DNA of 32,000 nucleotides from an uncultured Methanobacteriaceae archaeon (GTDB taxonomy: Archaea; Methanobacteriota; Methanobacteria; Methanobacteriales; Methanobacteriaceae). Of this stretch, positions 1 to 20,264 are shown piece after piece (positions within the stretch are counted from its first letter, which is position 1; every line of letters starts with the position of its first letter). The translations under genes and the position numbers were made by a program. The notes below the pieces were generated by a model that saw only the letters and a list, made by a program, of their open reading frames with translations, had not been told where the DNA came from and did no database searches. Location: assembly GCA_963739415.1 (NCBI GenBank), contig CAVUAJ010000001.1, positions 247,420 to 279,419 on the forward strand. The letters run 5' to 3'.

Positions 1-951
1 TTCCGGAGTTATTGGTTCATAAGTCTCAGCTTTCTGGAGAACACCATGTACATGTATCCCTGCTTCATGAGCAAAGGCATTTTCTCCAACGATAGCCTTA
101 TTAGGGGGCATTTTAACTCCGGTAATGCGCGATACCAATTCTGAAGTATCAACCAGAAGCTCTGTTTTTATATTCATTTTTATGCCATATATGCTTATAA
201 GAGCCATTATCACTTCTTCCAGAGAAGCATTACCTGCTCTTTCCCCTAATCCATTTATGGCTACATGTACCTGGCTTGCGCCGGCTTCAACAGCACTTAA
301 AGAATTAGCAACTGCCAGACCAAAGTCATTGTGACAGTGCACACTAATTGGAATCTTTAAATTACTTCTAAGTTTAGAAATCAAATATTTCATTGATGCA
401 GGAATCATAACCCCTACAGTATCAGGCACATTTACATAATCAACTCCTGCATCTTCAACTGCTAGGTAAACTTCTTTAAGATAATCAAATTCAGTTCTAG
501 TAGCATCTTCTGCTGAGAATTCTGCCAGTATACCATGATCTTTTACGTATTCAACAGCCTCTACAGACTTTTTTAAAATATCTGCTTTACTCATTTTAAG
601 CTTGAATTCTCTATGCAAAGGAGATGTCCCTATGAAAATATGAATGTAATCAACTCCACAACCAATGGCAGCATCTAAATCTTTTTTAAGAGGTCTTGCC
701 AAACCACATATTTTAGCATTCAATCCTAGTTTAAGGATTTCTCGAGCTGCTTCCTTTTCACCTTCAGAAGAAACCGGGAATCCTGCCTCTATTGTATCGA
801 CACCAATTTTATCCAATTTTTTTGCGATTCTTATCTTCTCATCCACAGTCATGGCAACTCCCGGTGTCTGTTCACCGTCTCTAAGGGTGGTATCAAATAT
901 TTTAATTGTTTCAGGTAGTTCCATGGTTTTTCTAACGTCTTCTACATACAT
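1..951 (-). CDS. 2-isopropylmalate / citramalate / homocitrate synthase family enzyme (LeuA/CimA/AksA type), first 317 codons; the 3' end runs off the window
   Basis: Absent from the ORF track because the window edge truncates it. My own minus-strand translation from ATG 951-949 gives [102 protein letters not shown] lies 9 nt upstream (961-965). The plus-strand ORFs 125..334 and 665..973 are antisense artefacts of this gene. Confidence 0.85.
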
Positions 952-1144
952 TAGGGAAGACCTCCCTCAATAATTATATTTTAAATAAATTTATAAAGTT
1001 AAGATTTTTATTAATTAAACTGGTCATGAATTCCATTTACATATTAATATTATTATTTAATCAGTTAAAAAGTTCATCAAGTTTCAATTTTTTTGTAAAA
1101 TTTTCATTTCTCCTCATTAAATAAGTTATTACAATGAATTTTTT

Positions 1145-1957
1145 TTAAGTACCTATAATTAGAGTTAAGAAGTCTCTAAGTCCTGGTGCTAAACCTAAAA
1201 TGAATATAGCTAATTTCAACATGTTTTTTATAGTTTTATCTTCCACGTAGGTGTCTATAACGTAAAGAGCGAATAATATTACAGTTATTTTAAGTGGATA
1301 CATTACCAGTGCAGTGCCTGTAAGATTATAAAGTGCATTAGGAAGCACATGCTGTTCACTGTATCCATAAAAACTAACTGCTACAAATGTAGAGCTTGCA
1401 TCAAATAGATGAGCCATTAAAACACTTAAATTAAATTTATCTCTGATCAAACTCCACTTATTTCTTAATATTATGAAAACTGATGATGTAAGCAGCCAAG
1501 CACCAATAACTTCGAAAAATGCAGTAACATTAACATGGTTTATGTTCAATATGTTGGGTATACATAGAGCTATTCCAATAATTAACATTATACGTCTGTA
1601 GTCAAAATTAGTTTTTCTCTCAATGTAAACTGATGTTAAGAGTGCTATAATGGTTATAATTCCTGTTAAAACATAGATACCCGGAGTTACCAGTATATAA
1701 GTTAGAGGGTAGATTCCATTATCCACTAAGGCTCTAGCGCTGGAGCCGAAGAATATAAATGGTATCAAAGGAATTAACAAGTCTTTAGGATCCTTTTTCA
1801 AGAATTTAAATAGTTTGATGATGAATATTACGACTATGCCCAGCATAATCCCGAAAACTACGGTGTTTAAGATAGTATATCCCGGATGGAGGTAGATAAA
1901 GTTTTCTCCAATGAATTGCGATAATTGAGACAATATATCAAAATAGTAAAATAACAT
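1145..1957 (-). CDS. polytopic integral membrane protein of unknown function (resembles archaeal DUF63-type proteins)
   Basis: 270-aa ORF made almost entirely of hydrophobic segments (roughly 7-8 putative TM helices) with short K/D-rich loops. The family assignment is from memory only. Confidence 0.5.
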   Translation of the reverse strand: MLFYYFDILSQLSQFIGENFIYLHPGYTILNTVVFGIMLGIVVIFIIKLFKFLKKDPKDLLIPLIPFIFFGSSARALVDNGIYPLTYILVTPGIYVLTGIITIIALLTSVYIERKTNFDYRRIMLIIGIALCIPNILNINHVNVTAFFEVIGAWLLTSSVFIILRNKWSLIRDKFNLSVLMAHLFDASSTFVAVSFYGYSEQHVLPNALYNLTGTALVMYPLKITVILFALYVIDTYVEDKTIKNMLKLAIFILGLAPGLRDFLTLIIGT

Positions 1958-2120
1958 ACAAGTCTAATCTGAAATTCCTAATACTAAATAATATATTAAA
2001 AAGTTTAAGTTGTAATTAAAATTTAATAAATAAATTAAAAAAGATATCACAATATTTCAAAAAATTTAATATTTCTTAGAATTTTTATACTTAAAAAATT
2101 TTAATTTAGACAAAATTTTT

Positions 2121-2777
2121 TTAAATTCGTTTAATCTTCTTTTTAATAACCTCTTTCAAAATAAGTGGTAAAGGTGTCCTATTACCAAAAACAACTGTTT
2201 TACCCGATAATATTCCCTTAATGACACTTTCTACTGAGAATTCGGCCTCTAATTCTGTTACACAGCTGCCGATAGCACCAAGAAAATGAGCATCACTAGC
2301 ACCGATTTCAGGAATCTTTCTTTTCGCTGCAAGTCTTTTAGCTCGCCAATTAGAGTATCCAAAAATGTATCTAGAGTTTAGGGTTTCAATGGCGTCAACA
2401 TCTAAATCTTTAACATAACCACAGAGTCCTTCTCTGTATCTTACAAATGGATGAGGAGCTATAGCAATTCCTCCATAACTCCTGATTTTATCAATAGTCT
2501 CTTCAGGAGATAAACCCATTTCTATTTCTTCGGTTATTCCCAGAGCCACAATATGTCCTTTATTGCTAGTAACCTCCATGGCAGGTATCACAATGAAATC
2601 ATCTAAATCTTTTGACTCCTTCATGGCTAATATTGAACCTTTTAAAGTATTATGATCGGCTATTGCAATCGCATCTAAACCAATTTCCCTAGATTTCCTA
2701 ATTATATCCTTTGGTGATGCTGTAGCATCTCCAGAGTATCTACTGTGTATATGGGGATCTACTATCATTTTAATCAT
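2121..2777 (-). CDS. PHP-domain metal-dependent phosphoesterase
   Basis: N-terminal DPHIHSRYSGD motif, then AIADHN, APHP and GASDAH histidine/aspartate clusters in the order typical of the PHP family. An alternative ATG lies at 2768. Confidence 0.75.
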   Translation of the reverse strand: MIKMIVDPHIHSRYSGDATASPKDIIRKSREIGLDAIAIADHNTLKGSILAMKESKDLDDFIVIPAMEVTSNKGHIVALGITEEIEMGLSPEETIDKIRSYGGIAIAPHPFVRYREGLCGYVKDLDVDAIETLNSRYIFGYSNWRAKRLAAKRKIPEIGASDAHFLGAIGSCVTELEAEFSVESVIKGILSGKTVVFGNRTPLPLILKEVIKKKIKRI

Positions 2778-2829
2778 ATCATATTAAACTAATTATTTTT
2801 TATTTAAATTTCAAAAAAAATTAAAAACT

Positions 2830-3870
2830 TTAAATATTATTATTAATTAACTTCTTATAATTAATAGCATTTATAAGACCTGCAGGTCCGGCCATCATCA
2901 CATCTCCTGCCGGAGCAGCGTAATGTACCTTAAAATCTGTTTTTTGAAGGATTTTACGCTTCGGTCCCGAAGCCACAACACATTCAAAGCCATTAATTGC
3001 CTCTTTTATCCAAGCTCCATGGCCTCCATCCCCATGTATCTGCTCATGAGTTAAAACACCCATTGCCAGTTCTTCAACATAATTTATCAGCTTATTAGGT
3101 GTTAGCATACCCGTATGATGCTCGAATACTCCACAAATTTTACCCTCAAATACGGATGCTGCCAAAGTGTGACCATTCCCAATATCTAAAGCCACGTAAC
3201 TATCCAAGTTTTTCACATAGTCATCACAAGTTGTTCCACATATGGCCGCGAATTTTGAATCCATTAAAACCGTATTATAACCCTTAAGGGTCCTTAAAAC
3301 TGCATTCATCCGAGTAAAATAGTCGGGAACAGGATTAAAATATGCAAATTCTTCAGGTCTGCGTGGAATGTCTAATTTTTCCCTTATTTTCATGAAACGA
3401 AAGTTTCTATTACCCACACCAGGCATAAAACCATGATCCTGTACTGCAACCCCTATATAATCGAATTCCAGCTCCACATCAAATTGATTGAATGCACCCT
3501 TTATGGCATTCATATCAACATCCTTAAATTCCATTTCATATAGATCAGGATTTTTTTCTCCATTCTCTATTATTTCAACACCTAATGATTCAACGAGATT
3601 CAAATTATCGTTGATAGTTCTAGCAGAGTTTTCAGTCATAATAACTCTGTATCCTTTTTTTAAATGATTTTTTATAGCATTACTTACTGAGCCTCCGCCC
3701 ATGGTTTCACCGCTTAAAAAAAGATCATTTTTATGTTTACGTATTCTCTCAGCAATTATTCGAGTTGGCGAGGGCAATACCATTTTAGGCGAGTTTTCTA
3801 TAGATTCTTCTGAATCATAGAGCATTATATCTTGGGTTCCTGAACCCACATCAATAGACAATATCTTCAT
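2830..3870 (-). CDS. ASKHA (actin/sugar-kinase-like ATPase) fold protein, DUF1786-like
   Basis: N-terminal MKILSIDVGSGTQDI phosphate-1 motif and a later LDIGNGHT phosphate-2-like motif. 346 aa. Same strand as the PHP and membrane genes downstream of it. Confidence 0.55.
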   Translation of the reverse strand: MKILSIDVGSGTQDIMLYDSEESIENSPKMVLPSPTRIIAERIRKHKNDLFLSGETMGGGSVSNAIKNHLKKGYRVIMTENSARTINDNLNLVESLGVEIIENGEKNPDLYEMEFKDVDMNAIKGAFNQFDVELEFDYIGVAVQDHGFMPGVGNRNFRFMKIREKLDIPRRPEEFAYFNPVPDYFTRMNAVLRTLKGYNTVLMDSKFAAICGTTCDDYVKNLDSYVALDIGNGHTLAASVFEGKICGVFEHHTGMLTPNKLINYVEELAMGVLTHEQIHGDGGHGAWIKEAINGFECVVASGPKRKILQKTDFKVHYAAPAGDVMMAGPAGLINAINYKKLINNNI

Positions 3871-3954
3871 GTTAATATAATTGTTCTTAATTTAATATTA
3901 AATCAATTAATTAAAATAAAAATTTATTTTTTTTTAATCCAAAAAATTATTAAT

Positions 3955-3970
3955 TGTACAAATATGTACA
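3955..3970. promoter_or_regulatory. two TGTACA hexamers (TRP-box-like) spaced 10 bp centre to centre, in the divergent region upstream of trpB2
   Basis: TGTACA at 3955-3960 and 3965-3970 (TGTACAAATATGTACA). A (TA)7 tract follows at 4002-4015, and the trpB2 ATG is at 4104. Confidence 0.5.
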
Positions 3971-4103
3971 ATAAAGATTATAAATTAGTATAAAAATTAA
4001 TTATATATATATATAATCGTACTACATTTTCGATTCGAGACCCTAAATAAAGCCCTAAAAATAAAGTAAAAAAATCAAAAAACTTAGAAAACAAAGTGAT
4101 TTT

Positions 4104-5399
4104 ATGTATAAAGTAACATTATCCGAGAAAGATGTTCCAAAAAAATGGTATAACATAGTGGCTGATTTACCTGTAGAACCACCTATGCCCTCGCAAACAG
4201 AAGAAGGGAAACAACTAGAAAATCTACCAAAAATATTCTCTAAAGGTGTTTTAGAACAAGAAATGTCCGCTGAAAGATGGATCAAAATACCTAAAGAAAT
4301 AAGAAATGTTTATAAAAAAGTAGGTCGACCCAACCCCTTATTCCGTGCTAAAGGTTTAGAAGAACATTTAGATACTCCTGCCAAAATCTATTACAAACGA
4401 GAAGATTTATCACCTACCGGTAGTCACAAACTTAACACTGCAATCGCCCAAGCTTATTATGCTAAACAAGATGGTATAGAAAGGTTAACAACCGAAACAG
4501 GAGCTGGACAATGGGGATCAGCCTTATCCCTAGCTTGTTGTCTGTTAAACATGGAGTGTACTGTTTACATGGTGAATGTTTCCTTCAAGCAAAAACCCTA
4601 CCGAAAAACAATCATGCAAATATACAATGGGAAAGTGATACCTTCACCCAGTAACCACACAGAATTTGGGAAGAAAATGCTCAAAGAAAATCCCAAACAT
4701 CCTGGTTCTCTAGGTATAGCAATATCCGAAGCCATAGAAGATGCATTAAAAGATGAAAAAGTTTACTACTCGCTGGGAAGTGTATTAAACCATGTGATGC
4801 TGCACCAAACCGTCATAGGATTAGAAACTCAGAAACAATTGGATAAAATAGGGGAATCACCGGACATAATGATTGGCTGTGTAGGTGGTGGAAGTAATTT
4901 CGCAGGCTCTACTTTCCCATTCATTAAAGATAAAATAGCTGGTAATCTAGATTGTCAATTTATTGCATCTGAACCATCATCCTGTCCCACCCTTACCCAA
5001 GGAGAATACAAATACGACTTTGGAGATACTGCTGGTTTAACACCCCTTATCAAAATGTACACTTTAGGACATGACTTTATTCCGCCATCAGTCCACGCAG
5101 GAGGCCTGCGTTACCATGGAATGTCACCATTAGTTGCTCTTCTTGCCCACGAAAAAATTATAGAAGCACGCAGCGTAAGCCAAACCAATGTCTTCGAAAG
5201 TAACCAAATGTTCGCACAAACTGAAGGAGTAATACCCGCCCCAGAAACAGGACACGCAATTAAAATAGGGATAGACGAAGCAATCAAATGCAGGAAAACT
5301 GGAGAAGAAAAAAATATTATCATTAACTTCTCAGGACATGGTTTATTGGATCTACAGGGATATGATGATTTTCTAGAAGGTAAATTAGAAAAGGACTAA
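4104..5399 (+). CDS. trpB2: tryptophan synthase beta-like protein, TrpB2 family (PLP-dependent)
   Basis: 431 aa. The N-terminal extension with [13 protein letters not shown] is typical of TrpB2. PLP-lysine motif TGSHKLNTA, and later [11 protein letters not shown]. It stands alone, with no trpA next to it. Confidence 0.9.
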
Positions 5400-5922
5400 A
5401 AAATTTTAATACTTCAATACTTTACTTTTAGAAGAACCTTATTCTCCCATTATCTCCTCTTTTTATCCTTTTTTAAGTTTAATAAATGTATAAAAAGATT
5501 TATCAATGCTCTTTTTTTAATATTATATTAATAATTATTATTAAAAAATAAATCTTCAAATGTTTTATAGAACTACCACAATAATACATTAAAAAAAGTT
5601 TCATTTTGAAATTTTAACAAATTTTACTTATTAATTTTCTAAAACTCAAGATTTTATCAACTATTCTTTAAATTATAATTTATAATAATTAAAATATGGA
5701 TTTTAATTGAATTGATTAAAGTATTTGAAGATTTTTAATTCAGCTTTTAATAGGCCGATATCTATAAATAAGATTGTATTTAAACTCTATTTTAACTAAT
5801 ATTAGGAAATTTTTAAGCTCTAATATTGGTGAAAAAAGCGAGTTTTAATCGTTAGAAATAGAAAATTAAACAAAAAAAAATAATTAGAAAAAGAATTTTA
5901 TAAAGGAAGGAAGGTGATTAAA

Positions 5923-6282
5923 ATGAAGCAAAACGCAGGTTTGTTATTAATAATAATAATAGTTGCAGTTGGAGCAGCAGGCGTTTGGGCTATTAGTAGT
6001 ATTACAAACCATAACCCCACCCTAAATTTAACTGCAACTAATAATAACACAACTAATGCATCTACTAATTCAGCAACTACAAATCCAAGCTCAAACAACG
6101 GCAATAATGCCAGTAGTGGAAGCAGTAGTAGTGGAAGCGGAAGCAGTAGTAGTGGAAGCGGAAGCAGTAGTAGTGGAAGCGGAAGCAACGGGAATACTGG
6201 AAGTAGTAGTGGAAACAATGATGGTCTAACAGGATCAATATACGTACCAGGCGGTCCACATTCAACGGTTCCTGGTAATTAA
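5923..6282 (+). CDS. small secreted or membrane-anchored N/S/G/T-rich low-complexity protein
   Basis: The GGTGA RBS (5913-5917) favours ATG 5923 over the track start at GTG 5914. N-terminal hydrophobic helix LLLIIIIVAVGAAGVWAI, then an Asn/Thr/Ser tract with many N-x-S/T sequons and an SSSGSGS repeat. Confidence 0.6.
   Translation: MKQNAGLLLIIIIVAVGAAGVWAISSITNHNPTLNLTATNNNTTNASTNSATTNPSSNNGNNASSGSSSSGSGSSSSGSGSSSSGSGSNGNTGSSSGNNDGLTGSIYVPGGPHSTVPGN
6121..6183. repeat. perfect 3 x 21-bp tandem repeat (AGCAGTAGTAGTGGAAGCGGA) inside the CDS
   Basis: Identical units at 6121-6141, 6142-6162 and 6163-6183. A partial unit lies at 6112-6120. Each unit encodes SSSSGSG. Confidence 0.95.
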
Positions 6283-6307: not shown

Positions 6308-7501
6308 ATGATTATTAAAAAGGTTTTGCCCCTCATGGTGGCTATGCTTATGTTTTTAAGCATAGGAGCATCAGCGGCAGCTAATTCAACTACAGCTAGT
6401 TCAACTAGTTTTAATACAAGTCAAATCATTCAATCAACGGGAGTTGTTAAATCCTATGTAGAGACTAATTTAACTCTACCTAACAAAATTACTGTAGCTA
6501 ATTCACAAGTTACTCCATCACAATACCTATATTTAGTAAGCACAGCTACCCAAAACGTATATAATAATAACAAAAGTTCGATAACTCTTAGAAATGTTTC
6601 AGCAGCCCCAAATCCTCAAAATGAAACTTTAACCAGTGGAAACATCAATGAAACACAGTATATCGCCATTGCAAAAACTATAACCACTTTTATCACTGCA
6701 AATGGCAGATTACCTAATTATATCTCAACTCCTCTAGGAAAAATGGATCTTCAATCAGCGATTTACATGTTTAGTAATGTCCTGAGTTTCTTCAAGGAGA
6801 ATAATAGACTGCCCAATTTTGTTTCTGTAGGCTATGGTCCCTCAGGTCAATTAAACGGTACAGCAAAATTTAATGAAACATTACTGAGTCCTACTACAAT
6901 TACATATGGGAAGGTTCTAAAACTTGGGTCTTTTGGTACAGGTAAAACTAAAGTAGCAATTATAGTAGGTATCGATCCTCAAGAAGTACAAGCTCACATA
7001 GCAATGCTAAATGCTATAGAGGCTCTATCTAAATCTTTAAACAACATACAGATTATAGTTTTCGATATAGTGGTTTATAACGGGACAGATTATACTACAG
7101 GAAGAACAGAAGGACAATATTTAGCACAACATTATGTAGTACCCTACATTAACACTTCTTACAAGTTAGTTATAGACGACCACGGAAATCGAGGACTTAC
7201 CGGGTATCTTAATGCAGCGGGACAACCCATAAGTGAATTCCTTATGGCACCAGATCTTGATGCAGCATCGTTAAAAATAGCTAACGAAATAATTAGCTCT
7301 AAATATACTGAAGGAAAATTAGTGTACCACAACATTCCTCCTGCAGACTCCACAAGTCCACCTGTTGTAACCATACCTATAGCAGAGAAAGGAATACCAA
7401 CATTAATTTTCGAGAATTACTTGAATCAAAATAACTACGCTCAAGTATTATACGTACATGCCCTACAGTTGCTTGAAGCCGTAAATTCGGTATTCGCATA
7501 A
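6308..7501 (+). CDS. secreted protein with pseudomurein-binding repeats and an uncharacterised C-terminal domain
   Basis: Signal peptide MIIKKVLPLMVAMLMFLSIGASAAA. Segments such as VVKSYVETNLTLPNKITVANSQVTPSQYLYLV, AKTITTFITANGRLPNYIS and VLSFFKENNRLPNFVSV match the PMBR pattern (helix, then xLPNyv). The C-terminal ~200 aa contain no Cys. Confidence 0.7.
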   Translation: MIIKKVLPLMVAMLMFLSIGASAAANSTTASSTSFNTSQIIQSTGVVKSYVETNLTLPNKITVANSQVTPSQYLYLVSTATQNVYNNNKSSITLRNVSAAPNPQNETLTSGNINETQYIAIAKTITTFITANGRLPNYISTPLGKMDLQSAIYMFSNVLSFFKENNRLPNFVSVGYGPSGQLNGTAKFNETLLSPTTITYGKVLKLGSFGTGKTKVAIIVGIDPQEVQAHIAMLNAIEALSKSLNNIQIIVFDIVVYNGTDYTTGRTEGQYLAQHYVVPYINTSYKLVIDDHGNRGLTGYLNAAGQPISEFLMAPDLDAASLKIANEIISSKYTEGKLVYHNIPPADSTSPPVVTIPIAEKGIPTLIFENYLNQNNYAQVLYVHALQLLEAVNSVFA

Positions 7502-7704
7502 AGAAATAGATTTTAAAGATGAGTCCATTTATTTTTTTTATTCTGACTCAATATTTTTTTTTTAATTTTTAAAAATAAATTATATTTAAATAAACAAAAC
7601 TTTTTTTTATTATTTAAAGTTTGGAGTAATTTATTTATATTGCTTGATTTTATAAAGATTAATATTTGTGATTCTAATTAGCTATATTTTGGAGGATATA
7701 AAGA

Positions 7705-11354: not shown

Positions 11355-11445
11355 TTATAACTTTTAATTTATAAGTTAGAAGTTATAAGTTATAATTATT
11401 ATGTTATAAGTTAAATGTTAAAAGTTATGAATTATAAGTTATAAG
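11355..11445. repeat. array A1: 13 contiguous in-phase heptads, consensus TTATAAG
   Basis: The heptads start at 11355 and recur every 7 bp. In order: TTATAAC, TTTTAAT, TTATAAG, TTAGAAG, TTATAAG, TTATAAT, TATTATG, TTATAAG, TTAAATG, TTAAAAG, TTATGAA, TTATAAG, TTATAAG. The array begins 3 bp after the stop codon of the ModE-like gene. Confidence 0.9.
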
Positions 11446-11504: not shown

Positions 11505-11532
11505 TTATAACTTAAAAGTTATAAGTTATAAG
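11505..11532. repeat. array A2: 4 contiguous heptads (TTATAAC TTAAAAG TTATAAG TTATAAG) abutting the ferredoxin RBS
   Basis: Read directly from the sequence. The last heptad overlaps the AAGGAG RBS, 16 nt before ATG 11548. The 15-mer TTATAAGTTATAAGG (11519-11533) recurs exactly at 18824-18838. Confidence 0.9.
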
Positions 11533-11547
11533 GAGTAATTTTTTTAC

Positions 11548-11775
11548 ATGAGAATTGAAGTTGATAAAGAAAAATGTACTGGCTGTGGAATATGTAAAGA
11601 AGCCTGCCCTAAAGGACCTAAAATATGGAAAATCAAGGACAAGGCTGAAGCCACCGACTTAAGATACTGCCATGTATGTACTATATGTGCCTCAAAATGT
11701 CCCCAAGGTGCCATAAAAGTTATAAGAGATGATAAAAATGAATCGGAAGAAACAGTTGCAACGGAAAACGAATGA
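11548..11775 (+). CDS. 2x[4Fe-4S] ferredoxin
   Basis: Two motifs, [12 protein letters not shown] and [12 protein letters not shown]. 75 aa with an acidic tail. AAGGAG RBS. Confidence 0.85.
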
Positions 11776-12316
11776 AACAGATATCAAAATCTCCTTAAAC
11801 ATTGATGGAAAAGGTCAATCCCAAATAGATACTGGAATTGAATTTTTTGATCATATGCTAGAATCATTCGCCAAACATGGATTTTTTGATTTAGAAATTA
11901 CGGCTCAAGGAGACACTAGTGTAGATGATCATCACACTGTAGAAGATGTGGGGATACTGTTAGGAGAAACATTTAAAGAAGCTTTAGGAGATAAACGAGG
12001 GATAAAAAGAATGGCACACTCCATAGTCCCTATGGATGATGCTTTAGCAACTGTAGCTATAGATATAGGTGGTAGGAGTTACACGGTATTGAATTTAATA
12101 TTTAAAAAAGCGAAGGTTGGAGATCTTAGTACTGAAAATGTGGAACACTTCTTTGAATCATTTTCCTCATCGGCAAATATAAATGTAAATGCCAAAGTAG
12201 AAGGTGATAACGACCATCACAAAATAGAATCCTTATTTAAAGCCTTTGCCACGGCCTTAAAAGAAGCATCTCGAATAGAACATGATGCAATACCCAGCAC
12301 CAAGGGCATAATATGA
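11738..12316 (+). CDS. hisB: imidazoleglycerol-phosphate dehydratase
   Basis: [56 protein letters not shown] are the canonical IGPD motifs. The start is ATG 11738 or 11729, and either one overlaps the ferredoxin 3' end. Confidence 0.9.
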
Positions 12317-17651: not shown

Positions 17652-18776
17652 ATGAATAAAACGAAGAAGCTGGAAATTCTAGCTGAAAGTGCTAGATATG
17701 ACCGCTGCAATCACATAAATTCAAATGTAGAAAGTTTTTTGAGAGGAAAACTACCCGGAGTATATAATGCTAGCACCGCCAATGGTTGTAAAGTACCTTT
17801 ATTAAAGGTTTTGATGACTAATAAATGCTCAAATGATTGTCGATATTGTATTAATCATAATAAGCATCAGTTTAATAGGGTGGAATTTTCACCAGAAGAG
17901 CTTACTTCCCTTTTTTTAGATTATTATCAAAATAGGTATGTAGAAGGATTATTTTTAAGTTCAGGAATCCCTAATGATGCTGAAAATTCCATGGAAAACA
18001 TGGTGGAAGTTCTCCAAAAACTCCGTTTGGAATATGGGTATAAGGGTTATATACATCTCAAAATTCTTCCAGGTACTTCTTATGATCTAATTAAAAGAGC
18101 TATGAGTCTAGCTGATAGAGTGAGTGTAAATATAGAAGCAGCTACTCCAGAAGGTCTAAGTGATCTTAGTAGTACAAAAAAATATGATACAGATATTATA
18201 AGACGTATTAATTGGATTAAAAAACTGAGGAAGAGGGATGAAAATCTGGCACCCTCTGGTCAAACCACCCAATTCATTGTAGGTGCCACCGATGAAACAG
18301 ACTTACAGATTCTAGATCGAGTTAATTGGTTATATAAGAAAATGGATATCAAAAGAAGTTATTTTAGTACTTTTGAGCCCATGAAACATACATCTTTAGA
18401 ATTTCGTGAAGGGCCTTCTCCTAAAAGAAGTCCTAGACTATATCAAGCTGATTTTTTACTTAACTCTTATGGCTTTAGTTTGGATGAATTGGTTTTTAAT
18501 GAAGAAGATAATCTAAAATTAGATGTTGATCCTAAATATTACTCAGCATTATCTCATAAAGAGCTTTTTCCTGTTGAAATTAATGAAGCTCATTATCAAG
18601 AACTTCTACGGGTACCAGGAATAGGTAAAGTATCTGCTGCAAGAATTGTACGTGATAGAAAGTTGGGTACTTGTTTTGAAAAATTAGAAGATCTTAAAAA
18701 TATTGGCGTTGTAACTAGTAGAGCTGAACCCTTTATTAAATTGAATAAAAAGTACCAAAGCACTCTTGAATTTTAG
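17652..18776 (+). CDS. radical SAM protein of the putative DNA modification/repair type, with a C-terminal helix-hairpin-helix
   Basis: CSNDCRYC (C-x3-C-x2-C). N-terminal [51 protein letters not shown] and [16 protein letters not shown] (HhH) follow the layout I recall for the bacterial family that is normally linked to a UDG-like partner. Confidence 0.7.
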
Positions 18777-18810: not shown

Positions 18811-18922
18811 TAATAAGTATAACTTATAAGTTATAAGGTATGCAGTTATAAGTTTTAAGTTAAAACTTAAATATTATAAGTGATAAGTTAAAACTCATAA
18901 ATGATAAGTTATAAGTTATTAT
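18811..18922. repeat. array B: TTATAAG-type heptad array immediately downstream of the par operon
   Basis: TAATAAG, TATAAC, TTATAAG, TTATAAG (18811-18837). After an 8-bp break there are 11 in-phase heptads at 18846-18922: TTATAAG, TTTTAAG, TTAAAAC, TTAAATA, TTATAAG, TGATAAG, TTAAAAC, TCATAAA, TGATAAG, TTATAAG, TTATTAT. The last heptad overlaps the stop codon of the 141-aa ORF. Confidence 0.9.
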
Positions 18923-19344
18923 AATCCTTTTTCCTCAAAGATCATCCAAATATCAGGGTATCTATTTTTTACTGCTTCTTCAATGAGCGTTGAAGCTTCA
19001 TTACTAATACTAAATTCAGGCTTTGTTTTCTTTAGAAATCTCAAAACTGCTGCGGACTTTGCTGACCATAATGAGATGCGAGGATTTTTATGAACGTCTA
19101 GAAGGACATCATTTATAACTCCCTCATCAAAATTTTCATTTTGAACAGAATTAACTTTATTTTCAACATCCTCTGCTATTTTATTATTCATTTCAGGTTT
19201 TGAAGTTGATTCATCTGTTTCAAGTTTTGTTTTATCCGTTTCTTCTTTAACTTCTTCTTCATCCAAGTAATTACTTCGTATAAGGGCATCTAATCCTTTT
19301 CCTAAAGCACTATCCGGTTTCTTCTTAACGTTTTTAGAGGTCAT
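18919..19344 (-). CDS. 141-aa ParA partner candidate: ParB-like N-terminal peptide, acidic linker, possible RHH DNA-binding C-terminus
   Basis: The N-terminus MTSKNVKKKPDSALGKGLDALIRS matches the conserved ParB/Spo0J N-terminal LG(K/R)GLxAL peptide. Residues ~27-75 are D/E/K/N-rich. The C-terminus PRISLWSAKSAAVLRFLKKTKPEFSISNEASTLIEEAVKNRYP has a strand-helix-helix pattern. Its ATG lies 3 nt after the parA stop, and its GGAGG RBS sits inside the parA 3' end. Confidence 0.6.
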   Translation of the reverse strand: MTSKNVKKKPDSALGKGLDALIRSNYLDEEEVKEETDKTKLETDESTSKPEMNNKIAEDVENKVNSVQNENFDEGVINDVLLDVHKNPRISLWSAKSAAVLRFLKKTKPEFSISNEASTLIEEAVKNRYPDIWMIFEEKGL

Positions 19345-19347
19345 TTA

Positions 19348-20127
19348 TTAACCTCCCAATCTTTCTAGTTTCAAAAGTTCTTCAGCAAGCTTTTGATAAG
19401 CAATTGTACCATTACATTCTTCATCATAAATTATGCAAGGTTTACCATGACTAGGGGCTTCAGCAAGCTTTACGTTACGTGGAATAGTGGTCTTAAATAT
19501 GTTCTCGGTCTCTCCAAAGTATTCCTTTACATTATTGTATACATCCCTTCCCAAACGGGTTCTAGAATCATATAAAGTTAGAAGAATTCCTTTAATTGGT
19601 GAAGGACTGTGTAAACGAGTTTCAACTAGACCCATGGCTCTAATAAGATCAGCCATTCCCTCCAATGCATAGAATTCGGCTTGTATGGGTATTATAACAC
19701 TGTCCGATGCCACTATTGAATTTAAAGTTAATAAGCCTAAAGAAGGAGGCACGTCGATGAAAACATAATCATATTGATCACCAATTCCCTCCATAGACTC
19801 TTTTAATATGGAATGAGGGCCTATAGTTTTGCTTAATTCGATTTCAGCACCGCTTAAGGATATATTACTAGGAACTAATTCTAAATCAGGGATATCTGTA
19901 TTAACGATAGATTCTTGTAGGGTATTTTGTCCCGTTAAAACGGAATATATTGAAATGTTTTGCTCATTTTTTTCTATTCCTAGTCCAGTGGTTGCGTTTC
20001 CCTGAGGATCCATATCTATCAACAAAATTTTTCTGCCTAGAAGGGCTAAAGCAGCTGATAAATTCACTGCAGTGGTGGTTTTACCACACCCGCCCTTTTG
20101 ATTTAGTATTGCAATTATTTCAGCCAT
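19348..20127 (-). CDS. parA: ParA/Soj-type partition ATPase (deviant Walker A)
   Basis: AILNQKGGCGKTTTAVNL (KGGxGKT), LLIDMDPQGNAT, SGAEIEL, YVFIDVPPSLGLLTLN, PIQAEFYALEG, TIPRNVKLAEAPSHGKP. 259 aa with no N-terminal HTH extension. GGAGG at 20139-20143. Confidence 0.9.
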   Translation of the reverse strand: MAEIIAILNQKGGCGKTTTAVNLSAALALLGRKILLIDMDPQGNATTGLGIEKNEQNISIYSVLTGQNTLQESIVNTDIPDLELVPSNISLSGAEIELSKTIGPHSILKESMEGIGDQYDYVFIDVPPSLGLLTLNSIVASDSVIIPIQAEFYALEGMADLIRAMGLVETRLHSPSPIKGILLTLYDSRTRLGRDVYNNVKEYFGETENIFKTTIPRNVKLAEAPSHGKPCIIYDEECNGTIAYQKLAEELLKLERLGG

Positions 20128-20152
20128 AAAAAAACAATCCTCCGTACTTTTA

Positions 20153-20187
20153 TGATAAGTTCTAAATTATAAGTTATAAGTTATAAT
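20153..20187. repeat. array C: 5 in-phase heptads (TGATAAG TTCTAAA TTATAAG TTATAAG TTATAAT) in the parA promoter/5' leader region
   Basis: Read directly from the sequence. The array starts 10 bp upstream of the parA RBS. A TATA-like TTTATATTA on the minus strand lies just beyond it (about 20186-20196). Confidence 0.9.
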
Positions 20188-20264
20188 ATAAATATTTGAT
20201 CATGAAAAAAAGAATATTACTCATTTTTTAAATTAATTAATAGCAAAAAATAAGTAAGGAGTTT

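Follow-up and report, generated by a model that had tools for sequence, protein, structure and literature searches.

Conserved TTATAAG heptad arrays around segAB as candidate SegB-binding sites in Methanobacteriaceae

We analyzed a 32-kb stretch (hereafter the window; GC 33.9%) of contig CAVUAJ010000001.1 from an uncultured Methanobacteriaceae archaeon, in which the two-gene operon segAB, encoding a Soj-type ParA ATPase (SegA) and a 141-aa partner (SegB), is bordered by arrays of contiguous 7-bp units with the consensus TTATAAG. We consider it likely that these arrays are binding sites of SegB, that is, the equivalents of segS in a euryarchaeal SegAB system, combining the roles of centromere and autoregulatory operator. 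The observations behind this reading are that both proteins have recognizable homologues and that the arrays, with the anatomy described below, are conserved at this locus in four lineages, do not occur in about 137 kb of control DNA and formally resemble the Sulfolobus SegB motif. Archaeal chromosome segregation has been worked out only in Sulfolobales; the SegAB orthologues of Methanobacteriales are known, and their DNA sites are not. The conserved arrays are concrete and directly testable candidates for the different sites expected near euryarchaeal segAB (PMC12284271), in organisms that include established biochemical and, lately, genetic models (Methanothermobacter).

The arrays, read here on the plus strand, occupy three loci of the window. 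The upstream array (20153-20187), a candidate segS operator/centromere at the segA promoter, consists of five units (TGATAAG TTCTAAA TTATAAG TTATAAG TTATAAT) and has a TATA-like box on one side and the ribosome-binding site of segA (GGAGG) on the other. The main block of the downstream array (18846-18922) has 11 units strictly in phase, the last of which overlaps the segB stop codon (18919-18921), and a distal block (18811-18837) lies 8 bp away from it. The third locus, about 7 kb from the segAB arrays, includes a distal array of 13 units (11355-11445), which begins at the stop codon of a gene for a ModE-like TOBE regulator, and a proximal array (11505-11532; TTATAAC TTAAAAG TTATAAG TTATAAG), which abuts the ribosome-binding site of a ferredoxin-hisB operon. 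An initial annotation of this DNA had described the two-gene minus-strand operon with its 3-nt gap, five in-phase upstream units between the TATA-like element and the ribosome-binding site, and 14 exact TTATAAG copies within the arrays, all of which we recovered at the same coordinates and in the same number. The 15 downstream units that it had counted held for the 11 of the main block, whereas the distal block is 27 nt long, so that one of its approximately four units has 6 nt.

The heptad arrays are real and non-random. The exact sequence TTATAAG occurs 26 times on both strands of the window; the 14 copies within the arrays are all on the plus strand, and the 12 copies outside them are close to the number that shuffled sequences predict for the whole window (mean 14.5). 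With an array run defined as at least four in-phase units with no more than two mismatches, we observed five runs per strand, all inside the three array loci, compared to a mean of 0.01 (maximum 1; longest run, five units) in 100 dinucleotide-preserving shuffles of the window. By the same run criterion no further array was found anywhere in the 32-kb window, and Tandem Repeats Finder (TRF) independently placed period-7 arrays at the same positions.

In the operon itself the ATPase gene comes first. segA (19348-20127, minus strand) encodes a 259-aa Soj-type ParA Walker ATPase with the deviant Walker A motif KGGCGKT, and segB (18919-19344, minus strand) encodes a protein of 141 aa with the N-terminus ALGKGLDALIR, a variable charged linker and a predicted C-terminal ribbon-helix-helix (RHH) domain (KNPRISLWS...). 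The ribosome-binding site of segA (GGAGG, 20139-20143, minus strand) was identified from the sequence and from the alignment of Methanobacterium loci. The TATA-box-like element (AAATATTTATATTA on the gene strand; 20184-20197, minus strand) overlaps the first heptad and is invariant in the alignment (A5); given its agreement with the archaeal TATA consensus, we take it to be the promoter of segA. The position of the upstream array between the TATA box and the ribosome-binding site would fit autoregulation.

A profile of 30 family members of the 141-aa protein matched the structures of Saccharolobus solfataricus SegB (7DUV, E = 7.6e-12; 7DV2, 6.3e-09), with 67-94 C-terminal residues aligned, while the protein matched no Pfam or NCBIfam family and no ParBc domain. 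Its family is compact: the first query gave 615 clusters at the 90% identity level, and there were 286 at 50% identity among 1.84 billion representatives. Close relatives of the protein carry the name Methanobacterium. Family members share an invariant ALG(K/R)GLDALI N-terminus, a charged linker of very variable length and a C-terminal domain (about 65 residues) that hardly varies. The published SegB signature, K/R-D/N-P-K/R-I-G/T-V/L-W-S (PMC12139799), reads K-N-P-R-I-S-L-W-S in the window, so that eight of the nine positions agree; Ser, which is Thr in other genera, takes the G/T position. Residues N87, P88, R89, I90, L92, W93 and S94 are invariant in 34 SegB-family sequences, and the same 34 members keep Pro109. 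Among the Sulfolobus residues, the base-contacting Lys52 and Trp56 correspond here to Arg89 and Trp93, and Pro72, which makes the dimer-dimer contact, corresponds to Pro109; an arginine at the position of Lys52 was already noted for euryarchaea (PMC8682754). On homology, the 141-aa ORF is segB, its product being a SegB homologue over the RHH DNA-binding domain, and an RHH fold is predicted for it from 7DUV. SegB had been mentioned in the initial annotation as an analogy; since the profile match makes the protein an actual homologue, the RHH centromere-binding role rests on homology. SegB homologues adjoining ParA-like genes in Methanobacteriales have been published (PMC12139799, PMC12284271).

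The N-terminal peptide of SegB resembles, in sequence, the ParA-activating N-terminus of bacterial ParB. The top PDB match of a 21-column profile of this region was residues 1-16 of Thermus thermophilus Spo0J, N-terminus on N-terminus (E = 0.23, not significant alone), and a phmmer search of PDB with the 31-aa N-terminus gave no match. Aligned with the N-terminus of a ParB encoded beside soj in a Bacteroidetes locus, the peptide agreed at 10 of 15 positions. Leonard et al. reportedly found in 2005 that the N-terminal peptide of ParB stimulates Soj in Thermus.

The label "Soj-type ParA" given earlier to the ATPase proved accurate. SegA matched the Pfam families AAA_31 (3.5e-64) and CbiA; among solved structures its top match was a "ParA family protein" (8RAY, 2.1e-67), and it matched Soj of Helicobacter pylori (6IUB) at 2.4e-62 and of T. 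thermophilus (1WCV) at 7.4e-58, a range of 1e-58 to 1e-67, whereas Sulfolobus SegA (7DUT) was matched at just 7.7e-19. By these scores the ATPase of the window is much nearer to bacterial Soj than to Sulfolobus SegA. Sulfolobus SegA forms an atypical dimer of non-sandwich type. Euryarchaeal SegA proteins are on average about 40 aa longer than their Thermoproteota counterparts (PMC12284271).

The initial annotation had proposed to look for repeats at orthologous parA loci, and each segAB locus that we examined had an array upstream of segA; these loci represent four lineages (Methanobacterium, Methanothermobacter, the Methanobacteriaceae metagenome-assembled genome (MAG) nzgw21 and Methanobrevibacter). 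The locus has thrS and housekeeping genes on either side, with synteny kept across several genera on contigs of 0.4-2.5 Mb, and the gene order thrS-segA-segB-radical SAM/helix-hairpin-helix (HhH) is kept in Methanobacterium and Methanothermobacter. segA and segB overlap by 4 nt in seven related loci and are separated by 3-4 nt in L122/L123 and L251; the exception is the Methanobrevibacter contig L287, with a spacer of about 300 bp.

The Methanobacterium set comprised 10 loci (GC 32-42%; SegB 57-88% identical), with the ferredoxin region visible in seven. These loci have arrays at all three positions and no other array within 20 kb. Upstream of segA all 10 share, with hardly any change, about 45 nt (TTTATATTATAACTTATAACTTATAATTTAGAACTTATCA, gene strand), and the DNA farther upstream is unalignable. 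This promoter-array block stays with segA even where an IS element (L124) or integrase genes (L126) have been inserted between thrS and segA. The insertions (L124: 8006-8950, DDE_Tnp_1; L126: 5735-8729, integrase-like genes and two genes of no assigned function) lie directly outside the block, and the thrS-segA spacer may be an insertion hot spot. The downstream and the distal third arrays keep their position, whereas their unit number and sequence differ between species, which points to selection on the array as such. The distal third array is present in all Methanobacterium loci, including two without the TOBE gene (L128 and L129). At the proximal site, seven of seven loci (the window and six others) have exactly TTAAAAGTTATAAGTTATAAGG just before the ferredoxin ribosome-binding site, with GAG after TTAAAAGTTATAAGTTATAAGG in six and GTA in L129; TTAAAAG TTATAAG TTATAAG at this ribosome-binding site is also kept in the two loci that lack the gene of the TOBE regulator.

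Outside Methanobacterium the upstream array is the constant element. In Methanothermobacter marburgensis (locus GC 49.6%) segA is preceded by seven heptads, the sole TTATAAG-type period-7 array in 20 kb (TRF also gives a weak TAATAAT run), and segB has no downstream intergenic space; M. tenebrarum has a similar array upstream of segA. In Methanothermobacter the spacer base alternates between G and C, giving CTTATAAGTTATAA with a period of 14, and this argues that the unit is the hexamer and not an oriented heptad. In nzgw21, with a SegB 39% identical, heptads occur upstream of segA and downstream of segB. Arrays on both flanks of the operon, as described initially, are therefore a feature of Methanobacterium and nzgw21, but Methanothermobacter has the upstream one only. 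Methanobrevibacter SegB proteins have long linkers, and in one Methanobrevibacter sp. contig (L287: 4700-5147; GC 19%) the DNA upstream of segA is made up, over about 450 bp, of 64 period-7 copies of the same unit, with CTTATAATTTATAACTTATAT as a super-period of 21 bp. This block is followed by a second array, of 19-bp repeats (L287: 5304-5460; 7.8 copies).

As a substitute for a whole-genome scan we used metagenomic loci around paralogues of a pseudomurein-binding-repeat (PMBR) protein as control DNA. The PMBR protein family is not known outside Methanobacteriales and is dispersed in their genomes. The control comprised 11 non-redundant Methanobacteriaceae loci (136,773 bases; GC 30-39%), 10 of them non-syntenic with the window and one (L273) overlapping its left end. 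These approximately 137 kb contained no array of at least four units and no exact TTATAAGTTATAAG (a 14-mer), with four weak three-unit runs only; at the density of the window (three loci per 32 kb) about 12 arrays would be expected. The arrays that the PMBR-locus search did find were all at the ferredoxin or segAB position of loci that are syntenic with the window. The possibility of a generic AT-rich satellite, raised with the initial description, does not agree with this absence.

A pattern scan of species genomes for TTAWAAGTTATAAGTTATAAK gave at least 120 matches, and at least eight Methanobacteriaceae loci were among the matches listed, to which the following counts refer. Most of the listed matches were heptad microsatellites of Poribacteria and Bacteroidota. 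In Methanobacterium-type lineages all three matches were segA promoters, and in Methanobrevibacter three of four flank one HAD-hydrolase gene beside gatA (L183: 7100-7170; L204: 6142-6183; L233: 6075-6116), with no segAB in the 8 kb covered at each; part of L233 shows synteny with window positions 1-5400. The arrays are, by these comparisons, locus-specific and apparently no general satellite, but they are not strictly confined to the segAB flanks. A further array (L232: 1268-1309; TTCTAAG, three TTATAAG and two TTATGAG) was seen in Methanobacteriaceae archaeon C19 (JAUYBK010000137.1), where the surrounding DNA is provirus-like and has a terminase-like gene at 3197-4690. If a mobile element carries the candidate centromere repeat of its host, it might use the host SegAB.

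Regarding the position on the chromosome, M. marburgensis segA is at about 39.5 kb of record CP001710, which begins at cdc6; the M. thermautotrophicus chromosome was rearranged to a Cdc6 start for comparison with CP001710 (mtd being MTBMA_c00500/MTH1464; PMC3087415). For M. ruminantium the origin was assigned to the DNA immediately upstream of cdc6-1, on the strength of its homology to the Methanothermobacter origin, which has been verified by experiment (PMC2812497). Taken together, these data place segAB about 40 kb (about 2.4% of the chromosome) from oriC in M. marburgensis. The segAB genes of M. congolense lie about 5 kb before the record ends. The window contains no cdc6/orc1 gene, and its GC skew tracks gene orientation and gives no information on the origin.

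The arrays can be compared with sites that are defined experimentally. For S. solfataricus SegB, ChIP-seq and footprinting gave the motif TCTAGA-S-TCTAGA, a palindromic hexamer with one G/C spacer and a 7-bp period (PMC12284271), and segS of S. acidocaldarius consists of three AGNGTNN heptads, (AGNGTNN)x3, that lie close to segA on its upstream side (PMC12139799). In the crystal structure each half site is occupied by one SegB dimer, on opposite DNA faces, with contacts through the Pro72 loop and a left-handed superhelix (PMC8682754); in our view, a 7-bp spacing would give this dimer geometry. When a Thermococcus genome was searched with the Sulfolobus motif, nothing was found near segAB, and a quite different site is probably present there (PMC12284271). 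In the window TCTAGA-S-TCTAGA had four matches compared to 7.8 expected, showing no enrichment, and the best match to the parS consensus had three mismatches, which is chance level. The SegAB literature consulted describes no such site near segAB for Euryarchaeota, and searches for TTATAAGTTATAAG and for heptamer repeats in Methanobacterium found nothing in the papers covered.

The methanogen system shares with that of Sulfolobales a homologous SegB (RHH domain, signature strand and dimer-dimer proline) with a disordered N-terminal tail and a variable linker, an ATPase-first operon and a palindromic hexamer at a 7-bp period; the strongest Sulfolobales sites lie beside segAB, including its upstream region, which is where the methanogen candidate sites are found. 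It differs in the Soj-like ATPase and the ParB-like N-terminal peptide, in the repeat (TTATAA(G) versus TCTAGA(S)) and in having contiguous arrays of 5-15 units (up to about 64) instead of 13-bp dyads or a triple repeat. Furthermore, the methanogen sites are intergenic and on both flanks, whereas more than 80% of the Sulfolobus sites are intragenic (PMC12284271). The arrays suggest one binding geometry, a palindromic hexamer with a 7-bp period, common to two phyla despite unrelated sequences.

Type Ib partition systems (delta/omega of pSM19035 and ParF/ParG of TP228) likewise combine a small ParA without an N-terminal DNA-binding domain with a small RHH partner, and their centromere is built of contiguous short repeats (the 7-bp heptads of omega) and doubles as operator, a likeness that is seen here at the sequence level only. 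The heptad sequence differs, as the omega heptad is WATCACW, and the sole solved relative found by sequence is SegB. Moreover, the methanogen locus is chromosomal and conserved across an archaeal family, unlike the plasmid-borne systems. RHH partners of type Ib systems have a flexible N-terminal ATPase-activating tail (PMC8682754). With bacterial ParABS the locus shares an ATPase that matches Soj at 1e-58 to 1e-62, an LG(R/K)GL-x-AL motif as found at ParB N-termini and, in M. marburgensis, an origin-proximal position; its partner of 141 aa, however, lacks the ParB HTH/CTPase domain, and parS is not present above chance in the window. The methanogen system gives the impression of a hybrid that joins a bacterial Soj/ParB-peptide module to an archaeal RHH DNA-binding module.

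We read the locus as the chromosome-partition operon segAB of a Methanobacterium. We infer SegB-heptad binding, its cooperativity, ATPase stimulation, repression and centromere function from sequence comparison, and propose the following mechanism. The upstream array would be a combined operator and centromere site, and the downstream and third arrays would be extra loading sites in Methanobacterium. Each unit consists of the palindromic hexamer TTATAA and one spacer base and would accept one SegB RHH dimer through its antiparallel beta-ribbon (R89, S91 and W93). The 7-bp unit spacing would set neighboring dimers about 240 degrees apart round the helix, where they may touch through the loop with invariant Pro109. 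An array of 5-15 units (about 64 in one Methanobrevibacter) could then nucleate a cooperative, wrapped SegB-DNA filament. Flexible charged linkers would display the N-terminal LG(K/R)GLDALI peptides and recruit the nucleoid-bound, Soj-like SegA-ATP dimer, whose ATPase would be stimulated by these peptides, so that the origin-proximal region of the chromosome is moved. Because the upstream array spans the TATA box to the expected transcription start, SegB occupancy should also repress segAB.

Several observations weigh against this reading. Restriction to the segAB neighborhood was judged from a sample of Methanobacteriaceae loci, and TTATAAG arrays without segAB in view are found at the HAD-hydrolase/gatA genes of three Methanobrevibacter, in front of bioY in a genome of 23% GC and within the provirus-like region. 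Similar heptad microsatellites in Poribacteria and Bacteroidota mean that the repeat sequence alone is not diagnostic. The third array on the ferredoxin-hisB promoter would be needless under a pure centromere model, and co-regulation of this operon through the third array is speculation. On the protein side, the DNA-contacting residues Lys75, Arg78 and Lys81 of Sulfolobus SegB (PMC8682754) are changed to Ser, Asn and Ser. The AlphaFold2 monomer of SegB is of low confidence (mean pLDDT 64.6; block means of 68-86, mostly 75-86, in the C-terminal domain), with helices at 74-85, 92-107, 115-128 and 130-138 and no strand at 86-91, as is possible for an obligate dimer; a Foldseek search of PDB with this model, which is poor outside the C-terminal helices, gave no significant match. 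Finally, the SegB-like protein of a putative viral or plasmid contig (L288; IMG/VR 3300030493_000264) has an identical RISLWS strand amid other palindromes (GAGTCATGACTC); if it binds these palindromes, specificity depends on more than the strand.

This contig (GC 50%) encodes a SegA/SegB-like pair. About 10 copies of the palindrome (L288: 1738-2230) lie in the region coding for the SegB linker, where they correspond to (D/E)SGVM(T/S) peptide repeats, and one further copy (937-956) lies just upstream of segA, which suggests that binding sites may be embedded in the variable linker of segB itself.

Among the alternatives, the one that survives best is that the heptads are the operator of another transcription factor, which co-regulates segAB and ferredoxin-hisB, while SegB binds elsewhere or non-specifically. 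We regard it as improbable. The arrays at 20153-20187 and 11505-11532 do share a position in two promoters, where they lie between the TATA-like box and the ribosome-binding site and vary least of all, and arrays at further Methanobrevibacter promoters (gatA and bioY) would suit such a factor. However, the long array at 18811-18922 is in a convergent 3' intergenic region without a promoter, and the 450-bp Methanobrevibacter block holds about 64 units; arrays of such length are untypical of operators and typical of RHH-type centromeres (omega, ParG; PMC8682754). In addition, no gene pair other than segAB accompanies the arrays in all four lineages, and the unit layout is the same as in the experimentally defined SegB motif. 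The ModE-like TOBE regulator encoded beside the third array was considered as the binding protein and rejected, since arrays persist in L128 and L129, where this regulator is missing.

That the arrays are neutral AT-rich 7-bp microsatellites, which arose by replication slippage and are shared by descent without function, seems very improbable to us. Such an origin would agree with the variation of unit number and sequence between species at the downstream and third sites, and with the TTATAAG-type microsatellites that reach 20 units in unrelated bacteria among the matches listed. It does not account for a position kept between genera with SegB about 40-55% identical, including a 50%-GC thermophile, for an upstream block of about 45 nt that is nearly invariant next to unalignable intergenic DNA, for the absence of arrays from the control or for shuffles of which none in 100 had more than one such run. 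Equally hard to credit is a role of the arrays as DNA structure or promoter, with several TBP/TFB sites, an easily unwound or curved stretch or a piece of a replication origin, in place of protein-specific centromere sites. Such a role would suit a core, TTATAA, that is like a TATA box, units made almost entirely of A/T and the origin-proximal locus of M. marburgensis, but the window has no cdc6/orc1 gene, the origin immediately upstream of cdc6-1 (PMC2812497) is about 40 kb off in that species, strict 7-bp phasing with a G/C spacer is unexpected for TBP sites or unwinding elements, and the downstream array has no gene to promote. Each of these three explanations is less consistent with the comparative data than binding by SegB.

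Beyond the identification of the arrays as SegB sites, a wider scheme can be offered only tentatively, as possible but rather doubtful in its entirety. Methanobacteriaceae would have a repeat-array centromere made of arrays of 5 to about 64 TTATAA-N heptads within about 9 kb round segAB, about 40 kb from oriC. A chimeric adaptor, with a ParB peptide and a SegB RHH domain, would polymerize on these arrays, drive the Soj ATPase and repress its own and the ferredoxin-hisB operons; array size would evolve fast, and mobile elements may borrow the system. If this scheme is true, no euryarchaeal centromere would have been defined earlier.

Some further features were recorded in the window and in other genomes. 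The ferredoxin-hisB operon (11548-12316, plus strand) consists of a gene for a 75-aa 2x[4Fe-4S] ferredoxin (11548-11775) and the overlapping hisB (11729-12316), and was recognized from its ORFs, an IGPD Pfam match and Fer4 families at orthologous genes. The conserved convergent neighbor of segB in Methanobacterium and Methanothermobacter is a radical SAM gene (17652-18776 in the window), whose product has a helix-hairpin-helix and matches TIGR03916, "putative DNA modification/repair radical SAM protein" (6.7e-106). No RNA family of Rfam was found within the window.

Among the matches listed from L131 to L250, TTATAAG-type microsatellites of 3-20 units were common in Poribacteria (at least eight loci in one MAG) and Bacteroidota, and none of these matches was inside a long open reading frame. 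In an uncultured Bacteroidetes (L144: 7720-7762; CAITNS010000053.1) five CTTATAA heptads lie in the 90-bp spacer from soj (6838-7671) to parB (from 7763); the position is striking, but this may be a coincidence, as such arrays are numerous in Bacteroidota. A SegB-family protein of 322 aa from Methanosaeta sp. PtaU1.Bin060 (P0262/P0388) has two tandem RHH domains (RRNPRIGIYS... and IKNPKLTVWS...) and could be a single-chain pseudo-dimer. In an ORF-rich stretch of the window, a perfect 21-bp tandem repeat (GGAAGCAGTAGTAGTGGAAGC; 6118-6187, 3.3 copies) is located directly 5' of the gene for a pseudomurein-binding-repeat protein (6308-7501).

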